From Candidatus Gastranaerophilales bacterium (GTDB taxonomy: Bacteria > Cyanobacteriota > Vampirovibrionia > Gastranaerophilales > Gastranaerophilaceae): 64,000 bases of DNA. Positions 2,151 to 44,355 of this stretch are shown in pieces. The notes below the pieces were generated by a model that made no database searches, had not been told where the DNA came from, and saw only the letters and a list, made by a program, of their open reading frames with translations. The stretch covers positions 841-64,840 of the forward strand of contig JAQVKX010000001.1 in the NCBI GenBank assembly GCA_028694425.1, written 5' to 3'. Made by a program: the position numbers and the translations under genes. The stretch's first letter is position 1. Every line of letters starts with the position of its first letter.

Positions 2151-2461
2151 TTTTCTCAAAGTTTTAGTGTAATAAATAATATACTTTAATAAAAATGAGA
2201 AAATTAAATCCCCTATAGTATTAAGACCACTGCACAAGTATAGAAAATTTGTTTTGACTGTTTTCTCTGAAATCTTTGATTTCGTGAGAAATGTCCCTAC
2301 TCGGGTTCTTACTTGTGCAGTGGTCAACCTTACAAAAGTGAGAATGGCAAAATCGGCACGAGGAGTGCCGTTTAGTCATTCGACACTAGCCGTCATGAGA
2401 CTTTGCTCAAGGACATTTTTGTAAGAAAATGGACTTGTGCATTAGTCTCGTATTAGGAATA

Positions 2462-3631
2462 TTATTGTCTCATTAAAAAATCAGGTAGCTCATCCTTATA
2501 GAAATTATTTTTCTTTTTTAATATTTTTTTATTTTGTTTAATACTTTTGACGGGAATTTCCTTACAAGCATTATCTATTGAAACTTTTGACACAACTTCT
2601 CTTGAGCTTTTATCATAAAAAGTCAACCAAAATCGATTTTTTACATTATCTACACAAAACGGTATTTGTCCGCTAAAGTTATCCCCTTTTTTAAGTTCGT
2701 TAAACATATTTTCACCATCAAAAGTATCGGGATAATAAACCGTCCCCGCTTCGTTTACAAGGGCAATATCAAACAAAGAAAAGATTTTATCGGACATATT
2801 TAAAATTGACAAAGATAAAATAATTTTATCTACATCCCCAAACAAATCTTTTTTATAAATAACATCGTTAATTTTTACATTAAGTCCTTCTTTTTTTAAT
2901 TCATCTTGAGGGAATGCGTTTTTTTTATAAACCGGCAGTTTAGAAGAAGAATACACTCTTACTTGGATTTCATCGCCGGGCGAAATTAAAATGTCTTGAC
3001 CTTTGCGGTAAAGTGCTATTCCTAAACCTATTGTGCTACCTAGTGCGGCACCTCCTGCAATTACGGTTCCCTGAGAAGAAGCTGTTCCTGCTAATCCGCA
3101 AAAACTCAAAGCCAAAAGCCCTCCCGTTATACCTCCTGCCGTAGCATAAACAAGATTATCTGCGGTTAAACCGGAAGCTGCCACCAAAAGATGTAGCCTG
3201 GTGGACATTTTTCCTTTAATCGGAATTTCCTTCCCGTCGGGTGTTATTAAATAGTCAAAACTTAAATCTAATGAACCGTTTCTTCCAAGCCGTTTTGCTC
3301 CTGTTACTTTTTTGATGCAGCCATGGGCGACAGTTCCTTTTGGGATTATTATTCCGTCTTTGCCTTCTACATCATCCATTACTTGGGCAAAAAATTCATC
3401 ATTTTCTTTTGCCGAATTTGTATCAAGAACTCTTGATACTGTCATTTTTAATACATTATTATAGTTTAATTTATCGACAGAACCGGTAAATAATTCACTT
3501 TGTTCTTTTTTTATTTTATCCTGCTTTTCAATATGTCCTTGAAAAATATCGTCCGAAGCATAAGCTATATTAAAGAATCCGATAATATATACTAAAATAA
3601 TATTTGTGATTAAAACCCTTTTTTTATTCAT
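2462..3631 (-). CDS. secreted/membrane-anchored hypothetical protein with central glycine-zipper segment
   Basis: 389 aa; N-terminal signal/anchor (ILVYIIGFFNIAYASDD); G/A-rich hydrophobic block GGITGGLLALSFCGLAGTASSQGTVIAGGAALGSTIGLGIA; 4-nt overlap with the upstream sugar transferase. Confidence 0.5.
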   Translation of the reverse strand: MNKKRVLITNIILVYIIGFFNIAYASDDIFQGHIEKQDKIKKEQSELFTGSVDKLNYNNVLKMTVSRVLDTNSAKENDEFFAQVMDDVEGKDGIIIPKGTVAHGCIKKVTGAKRLGRNGSLDLSFDYLITPDGKEIPIKGKMSTRLHLLVAASGLTADNLVYATAGGITGGLLALSFCGLAGTASSQGTVIAGGAALGSTIGLGIALYRKGQDILISPGDEIQVRVYSSSKLPVYKKNAFPQDELKKEGLNVKINDVIYKKDLFGDVDKIILSLSILNMSDKIFSLFDIALVNEAGTVYYPDTFDGENMFNELKKGDNFSGQIPFCVDNVKNRFWLTFYDKSSREVVSKVSIDNACKEIPVKSIKQNKKILKKKNNFYKDELPDFLMRQ

Positions 3632-4335
3632 CCTGCACCTTTTGCAGAGATTACAACGAAGATGGTCTTAAAAATTATTTTTAAATCCAAAAGAATATTC
3701 CAAGTCCTTATATATTCATAATCAAGCTCGATTACTTTATCAAAATCTTTTATGTTTGCCCTTCCGCTGATTTGCCACAAACCTGTTAATCCCGGCGGTT
3801 TTAAAAATTTAACCATATGATGTTCTTCATATTTTAGCAACTCACGAGGCAGAGGCGGTCTCGGTCTGACTAAAGACATTTCCCCTTTTAAGATATTAAA
3901 TAATTGCGGTAATTCGTCAAGGCTGCATTTGCGTATTATTTTACCTATCTTTGTAATCCTGGGGTCTTTTTTTGATTTAAACATTACCGGATTTGTATGG
4001 TTTAAATCTTTTACTTTTTCAAATTGTTCTTCTGCATCTTCAACCATGCTTCGAAATTTATACATGTAAAAAATCTTTTCTCTAAAACCAACCCTTTCTT
4101 GCTTAAAAATAGCAGGACCTTTGGAGTCTAATTTTATAATGATAATTAATAATAAGAAAAGCGGACTGGACAAAATAATTGCGGTTAGACTTAATATGAT
4201 ATCCATAAATCTTTTAACTGCTTGTTGTACAGGCTTATGCTTGACCATAAATTTTAATTTACTGACAGGTAAATTAGTGCTATGTATTACGGTCAGATTA
4301 TTAATGCATTCTTTTTCTTGACAAACTATTCCCAA
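3628..4335 (-). CDS. undecaprenyl-phosphate sugar phosphotransferase (bacterial sugar transferase family, WbaP/EpsL-like)
   Basis: GPAIFKQERVG, YKFRSM, DELPQLFNILKGEMSLVRPRP and GLTGLWQISGR motifs; true start may be an internal Met (4248). Confidence 0.85.
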   Translation of the reverse strand: MGIVCQEKECINNLTVIHSTNLPVSKLKFMVKHKPVQQAVKRFMDIILSLTAIILSSPLFLLLIIIIKLDSKGPAIFKQERVGFREKIFYMYKFRSMVEDAEEQFEKVKDLNHTNPVMFKSKKDPRITKIGKIIRKCSLDELPQLFNILKGEMSLVRPRPPLPRELLKYEEHHMVKFLKPPGLTGLWQISGRANIKDFDKVIELDYEYIRTWNILLDLKIIFKTIFVVISAKGAG

Positions 4336-4405
4336 TTCCCTAAAACCTCTTCAGGACTTAACATTGATTCTTTATTATTGTAGAATAGAAAAAAATAAAA
4401 TGCAA

Positions 4406-4450
4406 TAAAAAAAGAGATAGTTTTACAAAATAAAACTATCTCTTTTTTTG
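4406..4450 (-). terminator. bidirectional rho-independent terminator downstream of rplT
   Basis: AGAGATAGTTTTA-CAAAA-TAAAACTATCTCT stem flanked by an A-run and a T-run. Confidence 0.65.
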
Positions 4451-4464
4451 TCTTAATTTTTTGT

Positions 4465-4815
4465 TTAGACAGCAGCTTTTGCTGTTTCAAGAATAACATT
4501 AAAAGCTTCTTTGTCATTTATTGCCAAATCAGCAAGCATTTTTCTGTTTACGATAATGTCAGCTTTTTTGCATGCATTAACAAATCTTGAATAACTCATG
4601 CCTTGAGCTCTGACAGCAGCATTAATTCTTACAATCCAAAGCCTTCTCATGTTCCTTTTCAGAACACGTCTGTCTCTGTATTGATATTTAAGTGCTTTCA
4701 TAACAGCACAATTAGCCACTTTAAATATTCTGCTTCTTGCACCTTTAAAACCTTTTGCAAGTTTTAATATTTTTTTATGTCTTTTGACATTTACGTTTCC
4801 GCGTTTAATTCTCAT
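4465..4815 (-). CDS. rplT: 50S ribosomal protein L20
   Basis: [28 protein letters not shown]... canonical L20 sequence. Confidence 0.97.
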
Positions 4816-4826
4816 AGTTCACCTTC

Positions 4827-5036
4827 CTATCTGCTATACTTCTTGTACGGTAACTCTTTAGAAATCAAATCATAATGCGTATCCGAAATCTCTTGTTCGG
4901 CAAAGATTCTTCTTTTTCTGCTTGATGATTTGTTTGCAAGAAGGTGACCTATTCCTGCTTTACGTCTGATAATTTTGCCGCCGGCCGTAACTTTATAGCG
5001 TTTAGCCCCGGACTTGTGTGTTTTCATTTTTGGCAT
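4827..5036 (-). CDS. rpmI: 50S ribosomal protein L35
   Basis: MPKMKTHKSGAKRYKVTAGGKIIRRKAG... canonical L35; 11 nt upstream of rplT. Confidence 0.95.
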   Translation of the reverse strand: MPKMKTHKSGAKRYKVTAGGKIIRRKAGIGHLLANKSSSRKRRIFAEQEISDTHYDLISKELPYKKYSR

Positions 5037-5054
5037 TTTCTTCTCCTTTTTTTA

Positions 5055-5306
5055 AGGGAAAAGGTAAAAGGGAAAGTGGAAAAGCCAACTCTGTTTCCTG
5101 TTTCCTATTTCCTGTTTCCTTTTAAGTGTAAGTACAAAAAAGATTATGGCAGCCAATGCCATAAAACTTTCGGCTTGTTTAATAATAATAACAAATAAAA
5201 ACTTATATGCAAGTGTTTTTTAAAAGGAGAATGGGAAATGGGAAAAGAATAAATGGGAAATTTTCATCTGACGCTTCACACTTCACTTTTGTACTTCTTC
5301 ACATTT
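5055..5306. repeat. stuttered-word repeat (SWR) cluster
   Basis: AGGGAAAAGGTAAAAGGGAAAGTGGAAAAG, CTGTTTCCTGTTTCCTATTTCCTGTTTCC, GAATGGGAAATGGGAAAAG, CGCTTCACACTTCACTTTTG. Confidence 0.8.
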
Positions 5307-5353
5307 CTTATAAAAAATATTGCAAAATCAAAAAAAAACATCATAATGTTAAT

Positions 5354-6337
5354 ATGAATCAATTTAATTTAGGTGATTTTATTAATAAATTTATTAATTA
5401 CTCTGTTCCAGGGTCTAAGAGCGGTGTATCTTCTGCACCCAATTCAAATACAACATCCGGTACTCAATTTAAATTAACAAACGAGGCTCTGAACGAAACT
5501 TTAGTAAAGAAGACCGTTGAACAACAACAAACCGGTGTTATGACTACCTTTAGTCCATCTATGCTTGCAGAATTAAAAATGAATAACCTTGCAAGTCTTG
5601 AAAGAAGCCTATACATTAAAGACTTAATGAAATTACCGAAAGAGATGGAAGAAGTCCTTGTCCTACTTCAAAATAAAGCTGTTTTAACAGAAGAAACAGC
5701 CGTCCTTTTAAGTAAGAGTATTAATTTATCTGTTTTAGCCGAATTAATCCAAAAAAGCGGTAAAGAAGCAATGAACAAACTTGTTTTGGTTATGGCAAAT
5801 GCTTCTAAACAAGGTTTAACAGATGTTTCACAGATAAAAGATGCTATTAAATTTATAAATGCAAGCGTTTCTGTTGCTTCAAAAGATAATCCAAACCAAA
5901 TTCTAAAAAGTTTTATGCTTCTTTATCTGCCTTGGCTCCCGCTACAAGAAGGCGTCGACTTTGAACTGGAGATAGAAAGTTCCCAAGGCGGCGAAGACGA
6001 TAGCGAAATTTCAATTACAATACTTATTTCCACCAGAAATTACGGCAACGTAAGGGTCACGTTAATTCTTCTTAAAGGCAATTCTATGGATATTGTAATA
6101 AATTGCTGTGAAGAATTTCCTAAAGATGAACTGCTAAAAAGAGTTAAAGCTGAAGGTAAAACGCACTCTATACAGTCAAATGTATTTTTTGAGCAAAACA
6201 TGATTAAAAATAATGACAATAAATCCTGCCAAGCTAAAATAAACATGTCCAACCTGATGGAAGTTAATCCGTTTTTGCTTTTAATGGCAAATGCCATTAT
6301 CAGATATACGATTGAGTTAGATAACTCGGCAGAATAA
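5354..6337 (+). CDS. hypothetical protein
   Basis: long open frame in AT-rich DNA; start moved to the ATG at 5354 (MNQFNLGDF...) because the 5207 ORF start lies inside repeat words. Confidence 0.5.
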   Translation: MNQFNLGDFINKFINYSVPGSKSGVSSAPNSNTTSGTQFKLTNEALNETLVKKTVEQQQTGVMTTFSPSMLAELKMNNLASLERSLYIKDLMKLPKEMEEVLVLLQNKAVLTEETAVLLSKSINLSVLAELIQKSGKEAMNKLVLVMANASKQGLTDVSQIKDAIKFINASVSVASKDNPNQILKSFMLLYLPWLPLQEGVDFELEIESSQGGEDDSEISITILISTRNYGNVRVTLILLKGNSMDIVINCCEEFPKDELLKRVKAEGKTHSIQSNVFFEQNMIKNNDNKSCQAKINMSNLMEVNPFLLLMANAIIRYTIELDNSAE

Positions 6338-6339
6338 GT

Positions 6340-6600
6340 AAGGCAAAAAGCAAAAAGTGAAGCGTGAAGCGTGAAGGGAAAAAGGGAATAGGGAACAGAA
6401 AAGAAGACAAGATGCGTAGATGCGTAGAGGCGTAGCCGAGTGACGAAGCAATCCAAGGAGCTAAAAGCAAAAAGTAAAATGTGAAATGTGAAAAGAAGTT
6501 GAACAGTCGAATAGTTGAAAAGTTTAATTAAGTGAGGCGTGAGGCGTGAAGCGAAAAGCTTGCCTTCCTGCCCTCTTGCCCTCTTGCCTTCTTTTCACAT
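6340..6600. repeat. SWR cluster (large; contains core GAAGACAAGATGCGTAGATGCGTAGAGGCGTAG at 6403-6435)
   Basis: AAAAGC, GTGAAGC, GGGAAnA, GCGTAG, GTGAAAT, GTTGAAnAG, GTGAGGC and CTTGCC(C/T)TC words, each iterated 2-4 times. Confidence 0.9.
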
Positions 6601-7817: not shown

Positions 7818-9107
7818 TTACTCTTCAGTTTCTTTAGCAGTTTTTTTACTTTTTGCTTTTGGCTTTTCGCTTTTTGCTTCTTTAGTTTCTTTTTCTTCTT
7901 TGGTTTTTTTAGCTTTTTTAGGTTCAGCTTCTTTAGCGTCTTTTTGCTTTTTGAATTCTTCAGGGGCATCTGCTCTTTCCTGATTCCATCTTTCAAGACC
8001 TAATTTGCCCCTTATAAGCCCGATACCTACGTGGACTCTCCATTCATCTATTTTTAATTGAGCCGCAATAATTTTGTGGCAACCTATCGGAGGTAAAGGA
8101 AGCAACGGTTCGTATAAATTTTGTATTGCAAACATCTGATCCGGTGAAATAGCCAATTTTCTTTTAGGGAAAGGTAATTTGGGAAGCAGCATTTTTTGTC
8201 TGATTAAGTTGATACCAAAGAAAACTTTTCTTGGCTCTAATCCGATTTTTGTGCCGATTACTTCATGTGCATCAGGATTTGGCAATGGTAACATTGTTTT
8301 GTATATTAATTCAATTTGTTCCAATTGCTCTTTACTTACTAAAAGCGGCTTATTAATACGGTTTCCTTGCGGTCTTCCGCCGCCTCTGTTAAAGCCGCCG
8401 CTTGAAGGTCTGTTATATCCGCCTTGCGGTCTGTTATAGCCACCCTGTTGCGGTCTATTGTAGCCTCCTTGTTGCGAACGCTGATATCCGCTCCTGTCTT
8501 GGTTGTAACCACCGCCTTGCGGTCTGCTGTAACCGCCCTGTTGCGGACGCTGATACCCGCCTTGTTGCGGTCTGTTATATCCACCCTGTTGCGGACGTTG
8601 ATATCCGCTCCTGTCTTGGTTGTAACCACTGCCTTGCGGTCTATTGTATCCGCCTTGTTGCGGACGTTGATAACCACCTCTATCTTGGTTGTAACCGCCC
8701 TGTTGCGGTCTGTTGTATCCGCCTTGTTGCGGACGTTGATATCCGCCCCTGTCTTGGTTGTAACCGCCCTGTTGGGGTCTGTTATATCCGCCTTGTTGCG
8801 GACGTTGATATCCGCCCCTATCTTGGTTATAAGGTCTTTGCTGAGGAGCTTCGGCAGAATAACTATTATAGAATTGCTGTTGCGAAGGTTGTTGCCCGGA
8901 TCCTTCGTTTTGTTCTTTTTGTTGACCGCCACCCGAATGATTTTCTTGTTGAAATTCTTGATTAGAATCTTCAGCTTCTCTTTCTAAATCTAAATCAGCC
9001 GATAATGCCATTTTTTTATCAGGATAAAGACAATTAGGACAAATAACTCTTTTGGGGTTTTTGGTTTCAAACTCTGAACCACACTTTGTGCACTTGTTTA
9101 CATACAT
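7818..9107 (-). CDS. zinc-ribbon protein with Q/G/Y/N/R-rich tandem repeats, duplicated C-terminal module and K/E-rich tail
   Basis: CTKCG...CPNC zinc ribbon; about 158 aa of GGY(N/Q)RPQQ repeats; two ~55-aa related modules (LPLPNPDAHEVIGTKIGL... / LPLPPIGCHKIIAAQLKI...); stop codon 3 nt from the rimM start. Confidence 0.7.
   Translation of the reverse strand: MYVNKCTKCGSEFETKNPKRVICPNCLYPDKKMALSADLDLEREAEDSNQEFQQENHSGGGQQKEQNEGSGQQPSQQQFYNSYSAEAPQQRPYNQDRGGYQRPQQGGYNRPQQGGYNQDRGGYQRPQQGGYNRPQQGGYNQDRGGYQRPQQGGYNRPQGSGYNQDRSGYQRPQQGGYNRPQQGGYQRPQQGGYSRPQGGGYNQDRSGYQRSQQGGYNRPQQGGYNRPQGGYNRPSSGGFNRGGGRPQGNRINKPLLVSKEQLEQIELIYKTMLPLPNPDAHEVIGTKIGLEPRKVFFGINLIRQKMLLPKLPFPKRKLAISPDQMFAIQNLYEPLLPLPPIGCHKIIAAQLKIDEWRVHVGIGLIRGKLGLERWNQERADAPEEFKKQKDAKEAEPKKAKKTKEEKETKEAKSEKPKAKSKKTAKETEE
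8364..8837 (-). repeat. in-frame coding tandem repeat, about 66-nt (22-aa) period
   Basis: about five copies of YNQDRGGYQRPQQGGYNRPQQGG; the DNA shows the same periodicity (CCGCCTTGTTGCGGACGTTGATATCCGC...). Confidence 0.9.
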
Positions 9108-9742: not shown

Positions 9743-9750
9743 GTTAGTTT

Positions 9751-9823
9751 AACAGGTGAACAGGTGAAAAGTTTAATTTTGAGATAACTGTTCACCTATT
9801 CACCTTTTCAACTGTTCACCTTT
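9751..9823. repeat. SWR cluster overlapping the rlmN 3' end
   Basis: AACAGGTGAACAGGTGAAAAG ... CTGTTCACCTATTCACCTTTTCAACTGTTCACC. Confidence 0.85.
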
Positions 9824-10839: not shown

Positions 10840-10856
10840 GATGAAATTATAGCAGA

Positions 10857-11082
10857 AAAGTAAATAGTGAATAGTGAATGGTGAATGGGAAACAGAAAAG
10901 AAGACAAGATGCGTAGAGGCGTAGAGGCGTGGAGTAAAATACTAAAAAACTTTTCAACTCTTCAGTCTTTCAACTTTTTACCTTATAAACAAAAGCATTT
11001 TTTATTTAAAAACTACGCATCTACGCATCTTGTCTTCTTGTCATCTCTCTAATTCTTTTCCCCTTTACCTTTTCCCTCTTTA
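10857..11082. repeat. SWR cluster with two core copies in opposite orientation
   Basis: GAAGACAAGATGCGTAGAGGCGTAGAGGCGTGGAG at 10900-10934 and CTACGCATCTACGCATCTTGTCTTC at 11013-11037. Confidence 0.9.
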
Positions 11083-11595
11083 AGCCGTTTTTATTGTGGG
11101 CTGGACAAATATTCTTGCCGCTAAATCCTTATCAAGCAAGTAAAGAGCACTCTTATCATCACCGATTAATTTTAGTTTAGAGATAATATCCTGTGCGTTA
11201 GCTTCTTCTTCGACTTGTTCATCCACAAACCAGTTCATATAAGACATTGTAGCTCTGTCTTTTACTTCTTCCGCAATTGTTACAATGTTATTAATCAAGC
11301 TTGTCACATAAATTTCATGCTTAAGAACTTCTTCCATAACATTAAGCGGATTTTTCCAACGGTTAGGCGGTGCATCAATCGGAGTTAAAATAACTCTTTC
11401 ACCCCTGTCAATCAAAAAGTCATATATAAGCATTGCATGAGCCGTTTCTTCTTGTGCTTGAACTCTCATCCAGTTTGCAAAACCAAGCAAACCCAAATCA
11501 GAAAAGTAAGCGGACATTGACAAATACAAATATGCCGAATATAATTCCTTATTTACCTGTTCAATAAGAATTTTTCCTACTTTTTCATTAATCAT
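11080..11595 (-). CDS. ftn: non-heme ferritin
   Basis: NKELYSAYLYLSMSAYF and QAQEETAHAM ferroxidase-site pattern. Confidence 0.9.
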   Translation of the reverse strand: MINEKVGKILIEQVNKELYSAYLYLSMSAYFSDLGLLGFANWMRVQAQEETAHAMLIYDFLIDRGERVILTPIDAPPNRWKNPLNVMEEVLKHEIYVTSLINNIVTIAEEVKDRATMSYMNWFVDEQVEEEANAQDIISKLKLIGDDKSALYLLDKDLAARIFVQPTIKTA

Positions 11596-11980
11596 ATTTT
11601 GCCTCCCACAATCCGTGCAAATTACAAAATTCTCTTGCCGTAAGTGCTCCTATATCATACCATTTCAGAGGGAATATAGGCTCTTCATTCGGGTATAAGT
11701 ATTTTCTCTTAACGTATCTTTCATCTTTGGAAAAAACCTCAATGAATTGGATATAATGTTCATCTGTCATAGGGTGTAAAACGCTTCCTACACGCACTTC
11801 AAGCTCATTGTCTTTCTTTACAAAGAAAGGAACGTGTTTCTCACCTGCAGCATCAGTTGTATTTGGCTCCAGCAAAACCATCGGCTGTCCGCAACAAACA
11901 AGTTCTCCTGCACCGGCTAAAACAACTTCTACAAAGTTTCCGCAAAGTTCACATTTGTACATTTCTAATTTTTTAGTCAT
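11588..11980 (-). CDS. dfx: desulfoferrodoxin (superoxide reductase)
   Basis: N-terminal CELCGN...CCG desulforedoxin-type site, EKHVP, HPM..EHYI and C..HGLW centre II motifs; start at the ATG at 11980 with a GGGGGA RBS; 8-nt overlap with ftn. Confidence 0.9.
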   Translation of the reverse strand: MTKKLEMYKCELCGNFVEVVLAGAGELVCCGQPMVLLEPNTTDAAGEKHVPFFVKKDNELEVRVGSVLHPMTDEHYIQFIEVFSKDERYVKRKYLYPNEEPIFPLKWYDIGALTAREFCNLHGLWEAKYD

Positions 11981-12064
11981 GATAAAATCCCCCTTTCGTT
12001 TGGTTATTTTAACATAAAAAAAATAAACATAAAAAAACATTATCCGATGTGCTAATATATTGTT

Positions 12065-12667
12065 ATGAGTAATTTAAGCACAGATGTTGATAATTTAAAA
12101 CAAAATTACAGGGAAATCTTTATTCGGGTAAGTGAAGAATTTAACCGTAAAACTGCAAATATGTCCGAAGATGAATTTTCAAAGTTTGTGAAGGAAGATT
12201 TTTTAAAAGAAGCTTATGAAATACAATTAAAAATCTCACAAAGCAGGCGAAAATTCACATGCAAAAACTGCGGTGTTTGTTGTAAACTTGCATGCAGTGA
12301 ATTTTCACCCGATGAATTACAGCAAAAAGCCCAAAGGGGTGATGATTTTGCACAGCAATTTTTGAGTGTTTTTGTTCCTTATAAAGACGAAAATTACCCT
12401 GAAAAGATTTACCCTGAATATTTTAAGCTTTTACAAGAAAAACTTCAGGGTGAAAATGTTTATTTCTACTATTGTCCGAAAGTTACCAAAGATAACCTCT
12501 GTCCGGATTATGAAAATCGTCCTCAGATTTGCAGGGATTTTCCTGACAATCCGCTTGGTTTTTTGCCGAAAAGCTGCGGATTTTTAAAATGGAAGGAAGA
12601 AGTTGAAGCAGATGCACTAAAACTCCATGCCATACTTGAAATTGCAAGGTTTTTTATAAATGATTAA
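12065..12667 (+). CDS. YkgJ-family cysteine-cluster (CxxCxxCC) protein
   Basis: CKNCGVCCKLAC plus a later CPDYENRPQICRDFP segment, typical of UPF0153/YkgJ proteins. Confidence 0.75.
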   Translation: MSNLSTDVDNLKQNYREIFIRVSEEFNRKTANMSEDEFSKFVKEDFLKEAYEIQLKISQSRRKFTCKNCGVCCKLACSEFSPDELQQKAQRGDDFAQQFLSVFVPYKDENYPEKIYPEYFKLLQEKLQGENVYFYYCPKVTKDNLCPDYENRPQICRDFPDNPLGFLPKSCGFLKWKEEVEADALKLHAILEIARFFIND

Positions 12668-12786
12668 ATAAATGGAAAATGGAAAATTCTTTAGGTCTCT
12701 TAAAAACTACGCCTCTACGCCTCCACGCATCTTGTCTTCTTTCCTGTTCCCCATTCACTATTCACTATTTCCCATTACACTATCCC
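12668..12786. repeat. SWR cluster (core in reverse at 12707-12739)
   Basis: AAATGGAAAATGGAAAA; CTACGCCTCTACGCCTCCACGCATCTTGTCTTC; CCATTCACTATTCACTATTTCCC. Confidence 0.9.
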
Positions 12787-13410: not shown

Positions 13411-13726
13411 GAGCATAGTATACGAGCATGCGGAAAAAGTCCCATTTTGACAAAAGCGGATTGCGAGCGGAGGCTGAAGGGCAAAACCACGCTTTTGCCC
13501 GAAATGCCGTTTAACGCGAGCAACCAAGGAGACTTTTTTGCATGCGACCTAAGAAGTGTGAAAGCCTTGCCGGCTGCGGGATAGCGAATTTTCGCCGGAG
13601 GGCGAAAGGGCAAAACGACGCTTTTGCCCATAGCCCGTTCAACGGCGAATAATTCAAGAAGCCGGCGGCAAGGCTTGAAACCGGACATCAGAGTTTACAG
13701 GAAAAAGGAATTTTTTCCGTAAACTC
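13411..13726. repeat. nested-palindrome element (NPE), long copy
   Basis: shares both ends and a central hairpin with 38692-38847; contains two extra GGGCAAAAC(C/G)ACGCTTTTGCCC hairpins; ends in GAGTTTACAGGAAAAAGGAATTTTTTCCGTAAACTC. Confidence 0.85.
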
Positions 13727-13794
13727 ATACAAATAAAAAAGATTGCCCATGATTTTTTGGACAATCTCTTTTAATTATTTGCTTACTTTATCTA

Positions 13795-16212
13795 TTAAGC
13801 TACTGGTTTTATGTTCGGATATTTTACTAATGCAACTTTTGTTGTTGCAGGTGTTGTTGCTTTTGGTTTGCTTGCTGCTTCTTTTGTTTTTTGAGCTGCT
13901 GTTTGTAAATCTTTTAATTTATCCAGTTCGTCTTTTGTTCCGACTCTGGCTTCAGATGTAACATATCTTGCAGTAATTTTTCCTCCGGACTTTTCGATTA
14001 TTGCTATACGTTTAATAATCTGGTCAGTTGTTCCTTCTTTGAGTTCAAGTTTTTCAAAGACCATATATGGTTGTTTTGTGCTTTGAGAATGATCCTCTTT
14101 TAATCTGAATCCTGCTTCGTTAAGGAAGTAATTTTTTGCTTGATTAAGATCCTTTGAACTGCATTCTTTATCATGCTGACCTGCTGCATAAGTGTATTTA
14201 CCGAGTTCAAGAGGGCTTTTATAAATATCACTCGCAAAGTAATCTTTGCCTAATTTATATGAGTATATGATTGCTGTGACTTGACTGAAGCTCTTACCTT
14301 GTAATTTGTCAGTTAAGTTGTTATCTTTTACAAATTGACTGTTTAAAAGTTCTGTTCTAAGTTGGCCTAAAGTTGTACATTTATTGAACACATCGGTGCT
14401 TAAAAGCTCTCTTGCAATTTCTATATGTTGTTTATATGCTTCGGCATCATTTATCAATATTTGATCTTCATTTACAAGTGTAGGTGTTGTTTGTGTAGGT
14501 GTTGCTGCAGGTTGTGCCGGTGTTGCTGGTGTTACTACTGCTTGTGAGCTTACAGTACCATCAGGTTTTACTTCGGCGGATGAGCTTACACTTGGTGCAG
14601 GAGATGGCACCGCAGGTGAAGCAGGTGCTGCCGGTTGTGCTGGTGCTAATATGTGACCTGGTACGGTTGGTGGTGCCGGAGGTGCTGTTAAGGGTGTTCT
14701 ACTTGGTACAGCTGCTTTCGGAACTGCAGGTACCTTTACTCCGTTGGGTGTTCCTCCTGTTGAAGGTTGTGGTGTACCCCCTGCTCCTATATGTATGCCA
14801 CCTTCCGGAATTTCACCTTCGTAAGTAATTTTTGGTGCCGGTTTACTTTCTGCTTCTGATTCTGATGATTTTTTTTCTGTTTTGGTAGTTCCATCCTGAG
14901 CCGTGACAGTAGTTTCAGTTTCTGCTCTAGACCTTGTCCTCATTATTCTACCATCTCCAGAACCTGGTACAGTTCCATTTGTTGAAGGTGTAGGCGTAGC
15001 TGCCCCGGATTGTCCTGTTGTTGGTGTTGCAGTTGATGTAGGTGCAGGCGTTGTCCCTGCTGTTGGCGCTGTTGGTGCTGCAGGTGCAGGCGTTGTTCCT
15101 GCTGTTGGTGTTGCTGGTGCTGCAGGTGATGTTCCTGCTTGTGCTTGTGTCTGTGCTTGTCCGGGAGTTGCAGTTGCGCTCGAACCCGTTCCGCTTGTAT
15201 TCGGTGTAGAAGTTGGTGCTGCAGGTTGACCCGTTGCTGCAGGTGGTAGTGCAGGTGCTGTCTGGGTAGCAGGTCCTGCTGCTGTTGTTGTATTAGTAGC
15301 CGATGCCGGTGGTAATCCTGCTAATACGAATTCTTGCTGACGCTTAATTTCTGCTTGAATTTTCGGGTCATTCCCTGATAAAATCCCTTGGAAAGCGGTT
15401 TGAGGGGTGTCCCCTGCGTCCAATATTCCATTTTTATTAGTATCTATTAATACGGTGGCGATTGTTTCCTTATTTCCGTCTCCATTAATATCATCTGTAA
15501 CACTGCATGTCCTACTTGAAGGAGTGTTTGTTTGTCCTTGTCCTTGCATTTGCGGTTGGACTTGTTGTTGAGGGTATTGTTGAACTTGCGGGTATTGTTG
15601 CGGGTATTGTTGCGGATATTGTTGAGGGTATTGTTGAACTTGCGGGTACCCACCATATTGAGGCATAGGTTGATAACCCGGTTGATAATAGTATTGTGGT
15701 TGTTGTGGTGGTCCGTATCCTTGTCCTTGTTGTAGAAATGCCGGTATTGTTCCTATTCCCAATCCTGATTTCAGAGCCTCAATTAAGGCATTTGTGAGTG
15801 TCAAAGATGGGGCATCATTCCCAAAAGCGAAACCGAAACCGGAAGGGAGTAAACACGTTGGTGCCTGTTGATATGCCGGAGCCGGTTGATATGTTTGAGT
15901 TGGGAAGTACGGCATACCTAAACCGGGGTTCGGGTAGCAAGCTCCTCCTGCTTGAGCAGGGAAACCATATCCCATTGGCTGTGTATTGCCACCGAAAAAT
16001 GGGCTAATCGTTGGATTAACACTTATGCTGATGTTTGGACTTCCGAAAGAACTTGAATAAGTTGTCTGAGTTCTTGGTGCAAAAATGTTTGAACCGGAAT
16101 AATCCCAAGGGTTTATTCGGCCATTGGGCGGTGTTGCAGCCGTACTAAATTGCGGTCTGGCAGATGAGGGCGATACTCCTCCTGCCAAAAACGGTAAAGG
16201 TAAAATGAACAT
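13795..16212 (-). CDS. large P/T/A/Q-rich low-complexity protein with a DxNxDG calcium-binding-like motif and a globular C-terminal domain
   Basis: 805-aa open frame; GGAAGGA RBS 7 nt upstream of the ATG; QQYPQQYPQQYPQ repeats; DINGDGNKE...DTNKNGILDAGD; long PT/PA linkers; C-terminal ~230 aa of normal composition. Confidence 0.65.
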   Translation of the reverse strand: MFILPLPFLAGGVSPSSARPQFSTAATPPNGRINPWDYSGSNIFAPRTQTTYSSSFGSPNISISVNPTISPFFGGNTQPMGYGFPAQAGGACYPNPGLGMPYFPTQTYQPAPAYQQAPTCLLPSGFGFAFGNDAPSLTLTNALIEALKSGLGIGTIPAFLQQGQGYGPPQQPQYYYQPGYQPMPQYGGYPQVQQYPQQYPQQYPQQYPQVQQYPQQQVQPQMQGQGQTNTPSSRTCSVTDDINGDGNKETIATVLIDTNKNGILDAGDTPQTAFQGILSGNDPKIQAEIKRQQEFVLAGLPPASATNTTTAAGPATQTAPALPPAATGQPAAPTSTPNTSGTGSSATATPGQAQTQAQAGTSPAAPATPTAGTTPAPAAPTAPTAGTTPAPTSTATPTTGQSGAATPTPSTNGTVPGSGDGRIMRTRSRAETETTVTAQDGTTKTEKKSSESEAESKPAPKITYEGEIPEGGIHIGAGGTPQPSTGGTPNGVKVPAVPKAAVPSRTPLTAPPAPPTVPGHILAPAQPAAPASPAVPSPAPSVSSSAEVKPDGTVSSQAVVTPATPAQPAATPTQTTPTLVNEDQILINDAEAYKQHIEIARELLSTDVFNKCTTLGQLRTELLNSQFVKDNNLTDKLQGKSFSQVTAIIYSYKLGKDYFASDIYKSPLELGKYTYAAGQHDKECSSKDLNQAKNYFLNEAGFRLKEDHSQSTKQPYMVFEKLELKEGTTDQIIKRIAIIEKSGGKITARYVTSEARVGTKDELDKLKDLQTAAQKTKEAASKPKATTPATTKVALVKYPNIKPVA

Positions 16213-17114: not shown

Positions 17115-17278
17115 GTGGACACTAATAACACTATAAGTCATGCCGAACTTGTTGACAAAGGGAACAGGCGAGGCACGAGCCTTGAGACCCTGTCTGTGTA
17201 GCTCGGCATCTTGCAAGTGAACAAATATTAGACCCTGAAACAAGTTCAGGGTGACGGTCTGCAGTAATTAGTGTCGAC
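17115..17278. repeat. GC-rich composite structured element (repeat or candidate ncRNA)
   Basis: closing helix GTGGACACTAAT/ATTAGTGTCGAC, inner helix ATGCCGA.C/G.TCGGCAT, hairpin ACCCTGAA-ACAAG-TTCAGGGT; shares a hairpin module with 29678-29703. Confidence 0.5.
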
Positions 17279-17292: not shown

Positions 17293-17400
17293 AAGGTGAA
17301 TGGATGAAAAGCTATATTTTTTACCTGTTACATTTTGCTTTTTGCCTTTCGCCTTTCACCTTTTGCCTTTTGCCTTTTGTTTTGGCTTTTGACTGTTTCC
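17293..17400. repeat. SWR cluster overlapping the rel 3' end
   Basis: GGTGAATGGATGAAAAG; TTTTGCTTTTTGCCTTTCGCCTTTCACCTTTTGCCTTTTGCCTTTTG. Confidence 0.85.
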
Positions 17401-19551: not shown

Positions 19552-19566
19552 GGTATAATTATAGCA

Positions 19567-19636: not shown

Positions 19637-19941
19637 AAATTTTTAAAAATACGGAAAAAGGTTTGACTGTAAGATTAAAAATAGTCCCTAACTCAAGCAA
19701 AAATGACATCTTCTTTGACGGGGATATTTTAAAAATAAAAATAACAGCTCAACCGATTGAAAATAAAGCCAATAAAGCTTTAGTTGAATTTTTGGCAAAA
19801 AAATTAAAAATCGCAAAAAGTAACATTCAAATAACCAAAGGTGAACTCAGCAAAGAAAAAACCTTATTAATTCAAGGGCTTAACAAAGAAGAGTTTTTTA
19901 AAGTGATTAATTATTTAGGTGAACAGGTGAATGGTGAATAG
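19624..19941 (+). CDS. yggU: DUF167/YggU family protein
   Basis: GLTVRLKIVPNSSKN...ITAQPIENKANKALVEFLAK pattern; the GTG start and the last 7 codons lie in GTGAAnn words. Confidence 0.8.
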   Translation: MKREEIFKNTEKGLTVRLKIVPNSSKNDIFFDGDILKIKITAQPIENKANKALVEFLAKKLKIAKSNIQITKGELSKEKTLLIQGLNKEEFFKVINYLGEQVNGE

Positions 19942-20074
19942 AAGTTGAATGGGTGAAAGGGTGAATGGGTGAACAGTTTCGTTTAAAAACTACGCCTCCA
20001 CGCATCTACGCATCTTGTTTTCTATTCCCTGTTACCTATTTCCCTTCACTTTTTGCTTTTTACTTTTCACTTAA
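19918..20074. repeat. SWR cluster (core in reverse at 19990-20020)
   Basis: GGTGAACAGGTGAATGGTGAATAG...; CTACGCCTCCACGCATCTACGCATCTTGTTTTC; TTCACTTTTTGCTTTTTACTTTTCAC. Confidence 0.9.
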
Positions 20075-21090: not shown

Positions 21091-21180
21091 AGGGAAAATG
21101 GTAAATAGTGAATAGTGAATGGTGAATAGAAAGGTTTAATTGATTTTATCTACAATTTACTATTTATCATTCACTATTCA
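21091..21180. repeat. SWR cluster
   Basis: GGGAAAATGGTAAATAGTGAATAGTGAATGGTGAATAG ... TTTACTATTTATCATTCACTATTCA. Confidence 0.85.
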
Positions 21181-21189
21181 TGTTATAAT
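21181..21189 (+). promoter_or_regulatory. extended -10 element TGTTATAAT
   Basis: TGnTATAAT 28 nt upstream of the ATG at 21217; the same ATGTTATAATTT string precedes topA. Confidence 0.4.
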
Positions 21190-21216
21190 TTATATAGTAA
21201 AAAGCGGAGGTAAAAT

Positions 21217-23770: not shown

Positions 23771-23805
23771 GAGCATGCGGAAAAAGGAACTTTTTCCGTA
23801 AACTC
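23771..23805. repeat. NPE, minimal copy (the two element ends joined)
   Basis: GAGCATGCGGAAAAAGGAACTTTTTCCGTAAACTC. Confidence 0.75.
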
Positions 23806-23856
23806 ACTTTACTTTTGTTATATAATTAAGCAAGAATACTAAAAAGGGGAAGATTT

Positions 23857-27217: not shown

Positions 27218-27670
27218 TTATAAAACTTTAAGCTGTTCAACGGGTGTATTTGCATTAAGTTCAATGTATTTAAACATGTTTTGAACAATCCCGGCAGGAA
27301 AATAATAGATATTGTTGCATGGCGTAATTTTTAAAATTGAATTTTTTTCATCAATTTTTACCACACTTGCCAAGAATTCCTTTTTTGCAACAGAAAAAAT
27401 AATATATCCGCTTCTGCTCTGTATTTCCAGTATGTTAAACCTGTTTGCGTTAACACTTGCAAGAGTTAAATAAAAAAGCCTGTCTGAATTGAATTTAAAA
27501 TATTTATAACAATCAGAAAAATCTACCGGCTGAGGCTTGACAGGAGAAGGTTTTGCAACAGAAGGTGCAGGTAAAGTCTGCACTGCGTCGGCTGTGCCGC
27601 AGGCACAGCCGACGCTTAAAAAGCATAAAACAAACAAAGTAAAAAAAAGTTTGCTTTTCCCTTTTTCCAT
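27218..27670 (-). CDS. hypothetical lipoprotein
   Basis: signal peptide with lipobox-like LSVGC. Confidence 0.5.
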   Translation of the reverse strand: MEKGKSKLFFTLFVLCFLSVGCACGTADAVQTLPAPSVAKPSPVKPQPVDFSDCYKYFKFNSDRLFYLTLASVNANRFNILEIQSRSGYIIFSVAKKEFLASVVKIDEKNSILKITPCNNIYYFPAGIVQNMFKYIELNANTPVEQLKVL

Positions 27671-27684
27671 TTCCCTTTTCCCTT

Positions 27685-30693: not shown

Positions 30694-30852
30694 CATGTCA
30701 TTGCGAACAGAGACGAAACCTCAACGCGGCAATCCAAAAAAATAATTAAATTTATTAAATCTTTTTGGATTTACCTCTCACCCAAAGGTACATTTAGTAC
30801 CTTTGGGTTCGGCAGAGTGTCGCTCGTTACACTCGCTCCTCGCAATGACATG
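30694..30852. mobile_element. MITE-like non-autonomous element, 159 bp
   Basis: perfect 13-bp terminal inverted repeats CATGTCATTGCGA / TCGCAATGACATG; internal 12-bp-stem hairpin ACCCAAAGGTAC-ATTTA-GTACCTTTGGGT; no transposase in the window. Confidence 0.55.
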
Positions 30853-30947
30853 AAATATTTTACAACAAACACCGTCTTTTATCCTAAAACTTTAACATAC
30901 GTAAAAAATTTACCATCATTAGCCCCATTTATGATAAACTAATAACT

Positions 30948-32506: not shown

Positions 32507-32511
32507 AGAAA

Positions 32512-32536
32512 TGTAGGGTGGGATTACTATCCTACC
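32512..32536 (+). repeat. GTAGG-hairpin 3' element
   Basis: TGTAGGGTGGGATTACTATCCTACC; near-identical to 58002-58026; begins 6 nt after the lptA-like stop. Confidence 0.7.
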
Positions 32537-32557
32537 AAAATAAATAAAAGGTATTAA

Positions 32558-38691: not shown

Positions 38692-38847
38692 TGAGCATGC
38701 GGAAAAAGTCCAATTTTGACAAAAATTGAGACTTTTCCGTATGCGACCTTAGAAGTGTGAAAACCTTGCCGGCTGCGGGATAGCCGGCGGCAAGGTTTGA
38801 AACCGGACATCAGAGTTTACAGGAAAAAGGAACTTTTTCCGTAAACT
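38692..38847. repeat. NPE, intermediate copy
   Basis: GAGCATGCGGAAAAAGTCCAATTTTGACAAAA...CCTTGCCGGCTGCGGGATAGCCGGCGGCAAGG...GAGTTTACAGGAAAAAGGAACTTTTTCCGTAAACTC. Confidence 0.85.
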
Positions 38848-38852
38848 CTTTT
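38812..38852 (+). terminator. rho-independent terminator of topA, formed by the terminal NPE hairpin
   Basis: 16-bp stem with one bulge, followed by TTTTT. Confidence 0.7.
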
Positions 38853-38854
38853 TA

Positions 38855-38962
38855 GTTTATAGGATTATAGGTTGTTTAGTCAAAATTGAAAGACCTTGCA
38901 GAACCGATAAACCCATCACCCTATAAACCTATAACCTTCTTTTCACGCTTCACTCTTCACTC
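38855..38962. repeat. SWR cluster
   Basis: TTTATAGGATTATAGGTT ... CCCTATAAACCTATAACC; TTTTCACGCTTCACTCTTCACTC. Confidence 0.85.
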
Positions 38963-41622: not shown

Positions 41623-41671
41623 TTTCTTTTTCTACCTCAACACGAAATCCTTCTGATTTCGCCTTTTTTTA

Positions 41672-44353: not shown

Positions 44354-44355
44354 AA

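Follow-up and report, generated by a model that had tools for sequence, protein, structure and literature searches.

What are the short, imperfectly repeated words that occupy so much of the non-coding DNA around this locus, and how did they come to be there? The sequence read was a 64-kb window (the whole stretch of DNA analysed) of one metagenome-assembled genome (MAG) of Candidatus Gastranaerophilales (Melainabacteria), a non-photosynthetic, uncultured group that forms a sister lineage to the photosynthetic cyanobacteria. The polA-encoded protein has a 100% identical counterpart in a MAG of this group. Bacterial genomes are shaped by small dispersed repeats such as REP, BIME, BOX, RPE and STRR, several of which have no established origin. 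By hand we delimited 26 clusters of period-7 and period-8 word arrays, close to the 25 or so given in an initial annotation of this DNA, totalling 2,859 bp, covering 26.5% of the window's non-coding DNA and lying at a density of approximately 0.4 clusters per kb. The words and coordinates listed in that annotation were all found in the window and the family does lie in spacers, but its presence in "almost every" spacer was an overstatement, as clusters are present in 20 of the 36 spacers that measure 40 nt or more. We also found approximately 600 bp of the family inside open reading frames (ORFs), which had been overlooked.

Arrays of period 7 or 8 detected by TRF occupied 1,304 of 8,520 non-coding bases (15.3%) and 1.2% of coding bases, with period 7 (44 TRF rows) making up 9.5% of non-coding and 0.55% of coding DNA; periods 6 and 9–12 showed no non-coding enrichment by TRF in the window. 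When the non-coding DNA was concatenated, period-7/8 cover was 1,308 bp against an expectation of 23.5 ± 19.4 bp from 50 Markov-1 simulations, an excess of approximately 55-fold. The arrays were also present in an independent assembly, with Logan contigs from run SRR22315504 being 100% identical to the window over 11031–12743 and 2421–6118. The contig covering 11031–12743 ends at the repeated core on both sides, indicating that short-read assemblies are broken by the repeat family.

Word order and strand polarity

In each copy, short tandem arrays are linked in series from the outside inwards through GCAAAAA, GTGAAnn, GGGAAnA, AAGACAAG and GCGTAGnG to an A/T-rich centre. The order (GCAAAAA)n-(GTGAAnn)n-(GGGAAnA)n-GAAAAG-(AAGACAAG)n-(A(T/G)GCGTAG)n is identical at a minimum of eight loci in the window, with TTTTTAA next in five of eight copies, and composite arms are shared by distant loci; the words are thus ordered and not random, as had been proposed. 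The composite core likewise recurs in both orientations: AAGACAAGATGCGTAG is found at 6404, 10901 and 61491 on the plus strand and at 11021 on the minus strand, and variant reverse copies are present at 12707–12739 and 19990–20020. The words GCGTAGnnGCGTAG and GTGAAnnGTGAA occur 8 and 34 times in the window, respectively.

Strand polarity is constant. A C-poor arm is followed by a G-poor arm of reverse-complement words, and the arrangement reads the same on either strand. C-poor to G-poor transitions number 14 compared with two in the reverse direction, both of the latter being borders of neighbouring clusters; left arms contain 6.3% C and 30.8% G, and right arms 29.7% C and 6.5% G. Read in the gene's own sense, arrays at gene 3′ ends are C-poor (11:1) and those upstream of starts are G-poor (13:4). 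An array starts within a few nucleotides of 13–16 stop codons, stop triplets are approximately five times commoner in C-poor than in G-poor arms, and the latter run as far as TGnTATAAT boxes (extended −10 promoters). The polarity had escaped notice in the initial annotation. An explanation of it as a mere echo of the purine-rich coding strands of neighbouring genes was rejected, as divergent spacers keep the C-poor to G-poor order, opposite to both neighbours.

This polarity is a more general rule than hairpin formation. Long imperfect hairpins had been suggested for the clusters, and long stems do exist in about half of them, but the suggestion fails as a general property: approximately 11 of 22 clusters fold significantly (z ≤ −3, ranging from −3 to −12), about half fold no better than shuffled sequences, and a cluster's own partner arm is its best complement in only 3 of 21 cases. 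The intergenic clusters outside the focal region are as follows, with the strand given where one is assigned.

5050–5125: cluster in the divergent spacer between rpmI and the ORF at 5207–6337, confirmed in Logan contig L084
6338–6601: largest cluster, between convergent genes, non-folding (z = 0.2 and −0.4); 217 nt of C-poor blocks (core A, then core B, GTTGAAnAG...TTTAATTAA-GTGAGGC) followed by a 47-nt G-poor CTTGCCnT block
9748–9807: small hairpin cluster in the rlmN-dtd spacer (z = −3.7 and −5.7)
17294–17391: cluster over the relA/spoT stop codon, in which (GGCAAAA)n codes for the final 11 residues
19566–19637: C-poor arm only, ten GTGAAnn/GTAAATG heptamers between the relA promoter and a DUF167 gene
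19918–20074: GGTGAATG octamers, then TTTAAAAA, then a reversed core A arm, between convergent genes (z = −4.4)
21095–21190: hairpin cluster in a divergent spacer, ending at the extended −10 box TGTTATAAT (z = −6.0)
27654–27686 (minus strand): (GGGAAAA)n directly 3′ of the polA stop, from which the following gene takes its start codon and first residues
38865–38965: TATAGGnT words, then reversed TATAGG and GTGAAGn words
41670–41765: GTGAGCC/GTGAACA cluster in a divergent spacer
44222–44355: cluster between convergent genes, own arms not pairing (z = +0.6)
45640–45735: cluster 5′ of the AdoHcy hydrolase gene (pairs I4 and I11), with a long-range partner at 44224–44284
48897–48966: GTGAACA/GTGAGCn hairpin upstream of rplJ (z = −4.9 and −7.0)
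49526–49582: non-folding cluster between rplJ and rplL
50880–50950: reversed arm GGAAATA / AAGGCAAG / ATGCGTAG, then TAAAATACTAAAA (pair I20)
52754–52825: small cluster, ending at a TGCTATAAT box
56000–56112: GTGAAAT and TATAGGnT hairpin cluster in a divergent spacer (z = −5.8 and −8.7)
56853–56995: near-perfect GTGAATA/GTGAATG heptamer hairpin (pair I23: 33 nt, 97% complementary; z = −12.4), beginning 1 nt past a stop codon
61430–61614: cluster with core A in plus orientation (pairs D11 and I1)

The left arm of 44222–44355 pairs with 45672–45732 across the AdoHcy hydrolase gene (I4: 61 nt, 84%).

Inversion, dispersal and copies inside genes

The focal cluster lies between the promoter of RlmN and the ferritin stop codon, and its left arm is matched by an inverted partner 1.8 kb away.

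10855–10934: left C-poor arm, GTAAATA GTGAATA GTGAATG GTGAATG GGAAACA GAAAAG AAGACAAG ATGCGTAG AGGCGTAG AGGCGTGG, adjoining the RlmN promoter TGCTATAAT
10935–11009: centre, an A/T-rich linker and GTTGAAAG-type words on the minus strand, forming inner stem-loops in the predicted fold
11010–11082: right G-poor arm, CTACGCAT CTACGCAT CTTGTCTT CTTGTCAT ... TTTTCCC CTTTACC TTTTCCC, beginning at the ferritin stop codon
12668–12790: inverted partner of the left arm (pair I2; synteny)

The whole focal cluster folds with z = −6.0. Its left arm is 90% complementary over 68 nt to 12709–12776 (pair I2), and the two arms flank a block of three genes encoding ferritin, desulfoferrodoxin and a CxxCxxCC protein. 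In the loci L001, L003, L007 and L008 the order is Ferritin(−) Dfx(−) CxxC(+) RlmN(+), and the three-gene block is flipped in the window. Judged by this gene order, a gene-block inversion has one of its junctions in the focal spacer, an event that the initial annotation did not mention. We infer that the flanking repeats caused the inversion, the repeat copies acting as putative recombination substrates, although the flip could in principle be unrelated to them. The longest exact identity between the flanking arms is 20 nt, which makes misassembly of the inverted block unlikely. A reading of the GTGAATA words beside ferritin as a Fur/PerR box was dropped, as the words occur genome-wide beside unrelated genes.

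Loci as much as 50 kb apart share composite arms of 56–88 nt in constant word order, which identifies a dispersed family. A stretch of 56 nt is identical between 11000–11055 (minus) and 61465–61520 (plus) and belongs to a longer pair, I1, of 88 nt (86% complementary), one of the long-range pairs, with I2 and I4; a direct repeat family of 75 nt (D11) is found at three loci. Matches of this length and order indicate that composite arms were copied between distant loci. Arrays also grow in place, since neighbouring words are more alike than words from other loci, with adjacent words differing by 1.32 positions and words from different runs by 2.49 (permutation p = 2e-4).

The family is not purely extragenic, and several copies lie in frame within genes.

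29316–29405 (minus strand): mini-element inside polA, in the 3′-5′ exonuclease domain: AAGATGCn four times, a loop, CCACGCCT three times, then CTTGTCTTC
29630–29657 (minus strand): GGGGTGAA-type words in the polA inter-domain linker, in frame
58505–58645 (minus strand): cluster at the ybeY/dgkA junction, coding for the YbeY C-terminus and for a 50-residue N-terminal extension of diacylglycerol kinase (NCBI annotation)
58758–58789 (minus strand): array of four TGGGTGAA words inside YbeY, in frame, dividing the Pfam match into two stretches
62398–62620 (minus strand): element in a GT39 (PMT_2) membrane glycosyltransferase, in frame, adding approximately 62 residues to a loop

The polA insert, 29 residues where the Klenow fragment has 3, corresponds to a clean 66-nt gap in a related contig (L083) and is present in a contig from a different sequencing run (L082), to which it is 80% identical, compared with 56% at third codon positions. 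This is the one clean insertion site, and no duplication is visible at it. The GT39 loop is short in most aligned homologues, and other lineages carry different inserts there. A further in-frame copy was found in a hypothetical protein on a JGI metagenome contig (L085). When the four insert peptides encoded in the window were concatenated as a query, only the source protein was matched among 5.8 billion sequences; a change in word copy number shifts the frame, which accounts for the lack of peptide conservation in the inserts.

The same core and word order are carried by L082 and L085, the two metagenomic contigs from other data sets. Comparison with relatives, which the initial annotation had proposed, gave a mixed picture: period-7/8 cover was 30.8 bp/kb in the window, 30.9 bp/kb in L082 and 23.6 bp/kb in L085, but only 2.3 bp/kb in the contig L083, an equally close relative judged by polA, with values mostly below 5 bp/kb across 80 GTDB loci. 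An exact scan with the core 24-mer found no match in 185,579 GTDB species genomes, those 80 related loci included, and a relaxed 22-mer scan of JGI metagenomes found one contig. Exact-protein look-ups for same-species genomes with ferritin, L20 and RlmN returned only Logan contigs of SRR22315504, or nothing.

Comparison with known repeat systems

The family appears to be previously undescribed. No Rfam model matched at the gathering threshold, consistent with its having been put forward as unrecognised, and a permissive threshold returned nothing but generic long-hairpin models of plant miRNAs, far below their cut-offs. The focal cluster had no BLASTN match among plasmids or phages, and a literature search on repeats in Melainabacteria or Gastranaerophilales gave nothing relevant.

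A likeness to STRR, REP and BIME in style and not in sequence had been noted, and this description is apt: tandem heptamers and a mosaic structure are present, and tandem copies of STRR1–3 are not. The STRR words are reportedly CCCCA(A/G)T (STRR1), TTGGTCA (STRR2) and CAACAGT (STRR3), as Mazel et al. are said to have described in 1990, and Elhai et al. reportedly found in 2008 small dispersed repeats within Nostoc heptamer arrays. Neither STRR1–3 nor the Xanthomonas/Nostoc heptamers GGGAATC and GGGGATT occur in tandem in the window, and HIP1 is absent from it. STRR and the SSRs of Nostoc and Xanthomonas share with the present family variant tandem heptamers enriched in intergenic DNA (Rehm et al. 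2015, PMC4692102), occasional inverted pairs between convergent genes, variable copy number and a function that is not known (PMC4692102). The host phylum is also related (Cyanobacteriota in the broad sense), and the comparison gains point because the host belongs to a sister lineage of the photosynthetic cyanobacteria. In contrast to STRR, with which there is no sequence kinship, octamers are here as prominent as heptamers (period 8 lies outside STRR), several word arrays are chained in constant order and copied as 60–90-nt composites, polarity is strict, in-frame intragenic copies occur, and the host is a non-photosynthetic member of the Gastranaerophilales and not heterocystous, most of its relatives being without the feature.

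Like the BIME, REP and REPIN sequences of enterobacteria and pseudomonads, the family consists of high-copy, mostly extragenic mosaics of ordered motifs in alternating orientation that are non-coding, non-autonomous, located at gene 3′ ends and recombination substrates. It differs in having direct arrays of 7–8-nt words in place of 20–40-bp GC-rich palindromes, no RAYT in the window, many copies that form no hairpin, and intragenic copies; the tetranucleotide GTAG does occur inside the innermost GCGTAG words by the centre, but it does not flank a palindrome and it is lacking in many clusters. As for MITEs, inverted arms are present, the outer words grade into A/T-rich flanks and no autonomous IS was found in the window. 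Pneumococcal BOX, boxA-(boxB)n-boxC, and SPRITE are similarly modular with an internal module of variable tandem copy number (PMC10969869), and they have partly complementary outer modules, lie clustered and nested in intergenic DNA and have had a terminator-like role proposed for them (PMC10969869); their modules are of 45–59 nt, whereas those here are of 7–8 nt and all of them stutter, and the sequences are not similar. Rickettsia palindromic elements (RPE) also lie in frame in unrelated housekeeping genes at fold-compatible positions as well as in intergenic DNA (PMC10969869), with no transposase known (PMC10969869), but they are 100–150 bp long with conserved peptides, and here peptides are not conserved and the arms are stuttered words; this likeness is one of behaviour, and no sequence relationship is claimed. 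Bidirectional intrinsic terminators share an A-rich 5′ flank, a stem-loop, a U-rich 3′ flank, the same appearance on both strands and a position directly after stop codons, but here the stems, imperfect and AT-rich, measure 30–100 nt, a stable stem is lacking in about half of the clusters, and U-tails are weak. By analogy, then, the family may be said to resemble BIME, BOX and RPE in behaviour and STRR in texture.

Origin, possible role and significance

We favour, at a probability of approximately 60%, a lineage-restricted, non-autonomous mosaic repeat family that was copied between loci and remodelled by slippage. Copying may have proceeded by transposition with an enzyme encoded outside the window or by gene conversion between copies, and arrays expand, contract and mutate in place through slipped-strand mispairing, as the word statistics show. 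Copies accumulate at sites that can accommodate additional DNA, namely the interval from a stop codon to the following promoter and, at frame-keeping lengths, in surface or cytoplasmic loops of proteins. The earlier statement that no transposase or integrase is present was upheld by Pfam in window ORFs of at least 100 aa, among which no Y1/RAYT domain was found either; as the 64-kb window shows neither an enzyme for mobilisation nor a target-site duplication nor sharply defined ends of elements, transposition is not demonstrated.

Slippage is the explanation proposed for the heptameric SSRs of Nostoc and Xanthomonas (PMC4692102), and pure microsatellite growth, by independent slippage on purine-rich seeds (Shine-Dalgarno-like or rich in Lys codons) with no copying between loci, is favoured by the closer likeness of adjacent than of distant words, by an enrichment confined to periods 7 and 8 as in other bacteria (PMC4692102), by the different words that different lineages carry at the same gene boundaries and protein loops, and by the polA/lipoprotein spacer, in which (GGGAAAA)n forms a short stutter and the corresponding spacer of a relative, 15 nt with no stutter, reads AAGAGAGGTAAAAA. 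Yet arms identical over 56 nt or nearly so over 60–88 nt, with five word types in order, are found up to 50 kb apart and also on contigs from two other data sets; such long same-order composites make independent origin impossible and contradict slippage as the sole explanation, and the words GCGTAG and AAGACAAG cannot be derived simply from local flanks. We consider this reading very unlikely. Mobilisation of a REP/REPIN-type element by a RAYT (Y1 transposase) encoded elsewhere, with the GTAG of the innermost GCGTAG as the recognition or cleavage tetranucleotide, seems highly improbable: the commonest superfamily of REPs consists of GTAG-tagged palindromic repeats (PMC3733652), the GCGTAG words are central beside the A/T-rich loop and the inverted doublets resemble REPINs (PMC3116915), but a 20–40-bp GC-rich palindromic unit is replaced by direct 7–8-nt words, many clusters (56853–56995, 48897–48966, 44222–44355) have no GCGTAG, no Y1_Tnp domain occurs in the window and in-frame intragenic copies are atypical of REPs. 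An assembly or binning artefact could be suspected in a MAG whose repeats break short-k assemblies; it is effectively refuted by Logan contigs 100% identical across clusters, by the same family in a different sequencing run and a JGI metagenome, and by long ORFs that stay open across in-frame copies, and the arms flanking the inversion share no more than 20 nt of exact identity.

Selection by the host for punctuation is an alternative of another kind, in which the clusters would be terminators, 3′-end stabilisers or insulators and their repetitiveness would follow from a shared sequence requirement. The arrays near 13–16 stop codons with their 11:1 C-poor bias and the G-poor arms ending at TGnTATAAT fit such a role, as does an A-rich to U-rich polarity matching that of bidirectional intrinsic terminators, in which the outermost GCAAAAA and GTGAAAA words place runs of A before the stems and runs of U after them. 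Clusters and canonical GC-rich terminators are moreover mutually exclusive at gene ends, the latter (1115–1142, 4405–4451, 13734–13773 and 50019–50061) being found at ends that have no cluster and the reverse also being true; approximately 11 clusters have folds in the z range −3 to −12, and words are better conserved between genomes than silent sites. Half of the clusters do not fold, however, and an arm usually finds its best partner elsewhere, which weakens any hairpin-based function. Clusters also lie upstream of both genes in divergent spacers (5050–5125, 21095–21190 and 56000–56112), and others sit within ORFs or in the rplJ–rplL spacer, places at which termination would do harm; close relatives use ordinary terminators and have almost no such repeats. 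The tails after stems, with 0–7 U per 10 nt, are only moderately U-rich and rarely a canonical tract, and we do not claim the clusters as intrinsic terminators. We regard selected punctuation as unlikely to explain the family.

Under the favoured reading of a copied and remodelled family, a role at transcript ends is plausible, and the copies that fold probably act as 3′-end hairpins or insulators between transcription units; such a function would be a by-product or co-option and not the reason for the family's existence. It is also conceivable, though decidedly doubtful, that strand polarity and not the hairpin is the signal, with C-poor sequence after stops and G-poor sequence before extended −10 boxes serving as hairpin-independent punctuation. 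Purine-rich nascent RNA would then hybridise stably with the pyrimidine template and RNA polymerase would pause or release. In favour of this, the polarity rule holds in all clusters and complementarity in about half; to our knowledge, photosynthetic cyanobacteria have no Rho. If this were true, the stutter-generating mechanism would be a lineage trait common to the cyanobacterial STRR heptamers, for which we know of no explanation since 1990.

The family joins features otherwise known separately, namely microsatellite-like stutter, a copied mosaic order, strict polarity and frequent in-frame residence, and the housekeeping proteins that host in-frame copies include the proofreading domain of DNA polymerase I. 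It yields spurious N-terminal extensions and odd annotated proteins, breaks short-read assemblies and is associated with at least one gene-block inversion. As it is present in some genomes and near-absent in equally close relatives, its proliferation can be dated and dissected by comparison.

Abundance, word order and copying of the repeat arrays

The stuttered-word arrays are real and statistically overwhelming. TRF returned 44 rows of period 7 and 32 of period 8 in the window, which together cover 15.3% of the 8,520 non-coding bases versus 1.2% of coding bases (1,308 bp of non-coding DNA observed versus 23.5 ± 19.4 bp in Markov-1 simulations); periods 6 and 9-12 were not enriched in the non-coding DNA of the window. 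Delimitation by hand, on which the cluster count rests, gave 26 clusters with a combined length of 2,859 bp, or 26.5% of non-coding DNA, in good agreement with the approximately 25 of the initial annotation, whose coordinates were all correct when re-checked against the sequence. Its statement that almost every spacer is filled was too strong, as clusters are present in 20 of the 36 spacers of at least 40 nt. Two Logan contigs from an independent assembly of run SRR22315504 support the arrays, with zero mismatches over 11031-12743 and 2421-6118. Both ends of the contig over 11031-12743 fall within the repeated core, the composite word block of the family, as would be the case for a core present in several copies per genome.

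The words had been described as ordered rather than random, and arms aligned by eye bear this out: one order recurs, namely [GCAAAAA]n, [GTGAAnn]n, [GGGAAnA/GGAAATA/GGTAAAn]n, GAAAAG, [AAGACAAG]n and [A(T/G)GCGTAG]n, followed by TTTTTAA or TAAAATACTAAAA. A second composite, GTTGAAnAG-GTCGAAnA...TTTAATTAA-[GTGAGnn]n, is found at 6495-6555 and again, reversed, at 44290-44355, and a third is built of TATAGGnT words. The long matches between loci show that composite arms are true copies rather than look-alikes.

Long matches between arms of different loci (repeat finder)
10995-11082 and 61445-61532, inverted pair I1: 88 nt, 86% identity, containing 56 nt of exact identity
10863-10930 and 12709-12776, inverted pair I2: 68 nt, 90% identity
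44224-44284 and 45672-45732, inverted pair I4: 61 nt, 84% identity
6353, 10850 and 61440, direct family: 75 nt at three loci

Heptamers adjacent in an array differ at a mean of 1.32 positions, versus 2.49 across different runs (permutation p = 2e-4), and particular variants are favoured at particular loci (GTGAAGC at 6357; GTGAATA at 10867 and 56858; GTGAACA/GTGAGCA at 41674, 48899 and 49530). Long composite copies combined with this within-array likeness indicate two processes: composite arms are copied from one locus to another, and words stutter locally.

Strand polarity and predicted folding

On the plus strand, all clusters begin with a C-poor arm and finish with a G-poor one, and the minus strand reads alike. 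Automated labelling found 14 C-poor to G-poor transitions versus two opposite ones, both at borders of neighbouring clusters. C and G make up 6.3% and 30.8% of left arms and 29.7% and 6.5% of right arms, and the density of stop triplets is fivefold higher in the left arms. Relative to genes, arrays adjoining stop codons are C-poor in the gene's own sense by 11:1, often beginning a few nt past the stop, and those upstream of start codons are G-poor in the gene's own sense by 13:4. We considered whether the polarity is a mere echo of purine-rich coding strands. The divergent spacers at 5050-5125, 21095-21190 and 56000-56112 rule this out, since they keep the C-poor to G-poor order in opposition to both flanking genes.

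G-poor arms commonly end in an extended -10 box: TGCTATAAT before rlmN, relA and ORF 52844, TGTTATAAT at 21190 and TGATATAAT at 57016. At the first three genes the box ends 6-7 nt from the ATG without a Shine-Dalgarno sequence (10840-10854, 19552-19565 and 52830-52843), an arrangement that for rlmN is kept in four relatives (L001, L002, L003 and L008) and that, judged from sequence, suggests leaderless mRNAs for these genes.

Long imperfect hairpins, proposed initially for spacers that hold words in both orientations, are predicted for about 11 of 22 clusters (z ≤ -3 on at least one strand). The predicted fold of the focal cluster has z = -6.0 and that of 56850-57000 z = -12.4, whereas shuffled versions of 44215-44360 fold at least as well as the sequence itself (z = +0.6). 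An arm finds its best complement in its own partner in only 3 of 21 clusters (permutation p = 0.07), and for several non-folding arms the true complement lies in another spacer at least one gene away (I2, I4 and inverted pair I6). Hairpin formation is thus a trait of a subset and not of the family. Tails 3′ of the stems are moderately U-rich at most.

Rearrangement, in-frame copies and distribution

In the four relatives retaining the ferritin/dfx/CxxCxxCC block beside rlmN (L001, L003, L007 and L008) the genes are arranged as ferritin(-) dfx(-) CxxCxxCC(+) rlmN(+). For the same orientation of rlmN, the window reads CxxCxxCC(-) dfx(+) ferritin(+) rlmN(+), and the focal spacer is therefore the junction of a simple three-gene-block inversion relative to these four. 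On one side of the block lies the focal left arm (10863-10930) and on the other its inverted copy (12709-12776), 90% identical; the two have no exact match longer than 20 nt, so assembler confusion is not expected, and the simplest cause would be recombination between the inverted arm copies. The AdoHcy hydrolase gene is likewise flanked by inverted arm copies, those of I4.

Copies also reside within genes. A 66 nt in-frame element in polA (27685-30675, minus strand; 996-residue DNA polymerase I) consists of [AAGATGCn]x4, a loop and [CCACGCCT]x3. The polymerase as a whole matches a protein of a Candidatus Gastranaerophilales MAG at 100% identity. Against the Klenow fragment, 29 residues replace 3 of the solved structure between two aligned blocks of the 3′-5′ exonuclease domain. 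The element is present in L082, a contig from another data set (polA 82% identical), and cleanly missing in the relative L083 (83%). Between the window and L082 the insert is 80% identical and polA third codon positions 56%. Other Gastranaerophilales polA genes carry short inserts of six or more further types in the same loop and the inter-domain linker. In the GT39 glycosyltransferase, one loop is longer by approximately 62 residues than in the majority of aligned homologues, where it is short; homologues P0148, P0121, P0175 and P0125 have different inserts at this loop. YbeY is interrupted by an in-frame TGGGTGAA array, and repeat words encode the C-termini of YbeY and RelA. A 155-nt copy in the JGI contig L085 has the same word order and is open in frame within a 349-residue ORF. 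The GT39 protein (61615-63213, minus strand; 532 aa as read here) is absent among the matches listed from a 5.8-billion-protein collection, the best listed being 56% identical, and the NCBI annotation of diacylglycerol kinase (58031-58627, minus strand) has a 50-residue N-terminal extension encoded by repeat words; together these indicate that the repeats affect gene calling in this MAG.

The 24-mer core was not found in 185,579 species, represented by one genome each. Among 80 loci around rlmN from Gastranaerophilaceae representatives (at most 84% protein identity), period-7/8 cover is mostly below 5 bp/kb, versus 30.8 in the window, and the specific word pairs of the family almost never occur; in some of these loci the same gene ends bear short arrays built of different words, which likewise run from C-poor to G-poor (6:1). 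The core and high density recur on L082 (30.9 bp/kb) and L085 (23.6 bp/kb), whereas L083, by polA as close as L082, has 2.3 bp/kb and conventional terminators. The family is patchy among equally related genomes, which points to a proliferation burst or horizontal spread rather than to inheritance of an old common trait.

Several other repeats and oddities were observed. An unrelated, nested, GC-richer palindromic family (GAGCATGCGGAAAAAG... / GGAAAAAGGAAYTTTTTCCGTAAACTC) lies at 13424-13736, 38693-38858, 23771-23815 and 46965-47016, with 57-67-nt segments 91-97% identical between 13.5 kb and 38.7 kb (direct pairs D13, D15-D17) and short versions 3′ of two other genes. A small hairpin element of GACCCTGAAACAAGTTCAGGGTGAC type occurs at 17232-17252 and in frame in the inter-domain linker of polA (~29665-29745, minus strand; ...RHPEFISGSNQ...KMLKQVQHDA), where it is common to L083 and many homologues and missing in L082. 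The polA-lptC spacer holds a long inverted pair, GTCATTGCGAACAGAGACGAAACC ... CGCTCCTCGCAATGAC (30700-30875; partial copy 6436-6460), which L082 and L083 lack in their orthologous spacers; some peptides of other polA homologues, for example SLRGASVASDEAIQ, resemble translated elements of this kind. A 56-nt segment shared at 75% by 32492-32547 and 57982-58037 (D18), with hairpin GTAGGGTGGGATTACTATCCTACC directly 3′ of two unrelated genes, may be a further small terminator-like repeat. Two ORFs lack a Pfam match: a 429-residue protein (7818-9107, minus strand) with N-terminal CxxC...CxxC and approximately 25 GGYNRPQQ-like low-complexity copies (24/69/117-nt DNA periods), kept beside dtd in relatives, and an 805-residue ORF (13795-16212, minus strand) with G+C up to 48% versus 34% for the genome, strong AT skew, internal 9/42-nt repeats (D1) and no tblastn counterpart in the 80 related loci. 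Tandem paralogues comprise two DUF6613 genes (47030-47740 and 47832-48539; 72-88% identical in parts), and the GT39 gene resembles the neighbouring ORF 63237-63986 (61793-61926 versus 63445-63578); D6, D12 and D14 cover both sets.

Relation to known repeats and interpretation

The family had not been recognised from sequence, and searches of Rfam, plasmids and phages likewise gave no match; the literature searched yielded nothing on repeats in Melainabacteria. Intergenic heptameric repeats of Nostoc and Xanthomonas are over-represented, sometimes inverted and of unknown function (PMC4692102). Described elsewhere are REPINs and RAYTs (PMC3116915), GTAG-tagged REPs (PMC3733652), and in-frame RPEs, modular BOX elements and SPRITE (PMC10969869). 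Our family resembles BIME and BOX as a mosaic with variable module number, RPE in its in-frame residence and STRR in texture, but lacks the defining sequence or unit features of each. The suggested likeness to STRR thus holds in style only, the window containing no tandem copies of STRR1-3, HIP1 or the Xanthomonas and Nostoc heptamers.

The explanation that fits best is a non-autonomous mosaic repeat that has been copied from locus to locus and reshaped by slippage. No window ORF of at least 100 aa encodes a transposase, integrase or Y1 domain, and the window, of 34% G+C, has no tRNA genes and carries the housekeeping genes rlmN, ferritin, desulfoferrodoxin, trmD, relA/spoT, fba, polA, topA, rplJ/L, thiC, ybeY, dgkA and others. 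Gene boundaries and permissive protein loops tolerate copies of the repeat, which would serve as recombination substrates; for the subset predicted to fold, a role at transcript ends is plausible. The family is of interest for its strict polarity rule, for its in-frame copies in essential enzymes, and for the phylogenetic position of its host, whose lineage (Melainabacteria) is the non-photosynthetic sister of cyanobacteria.
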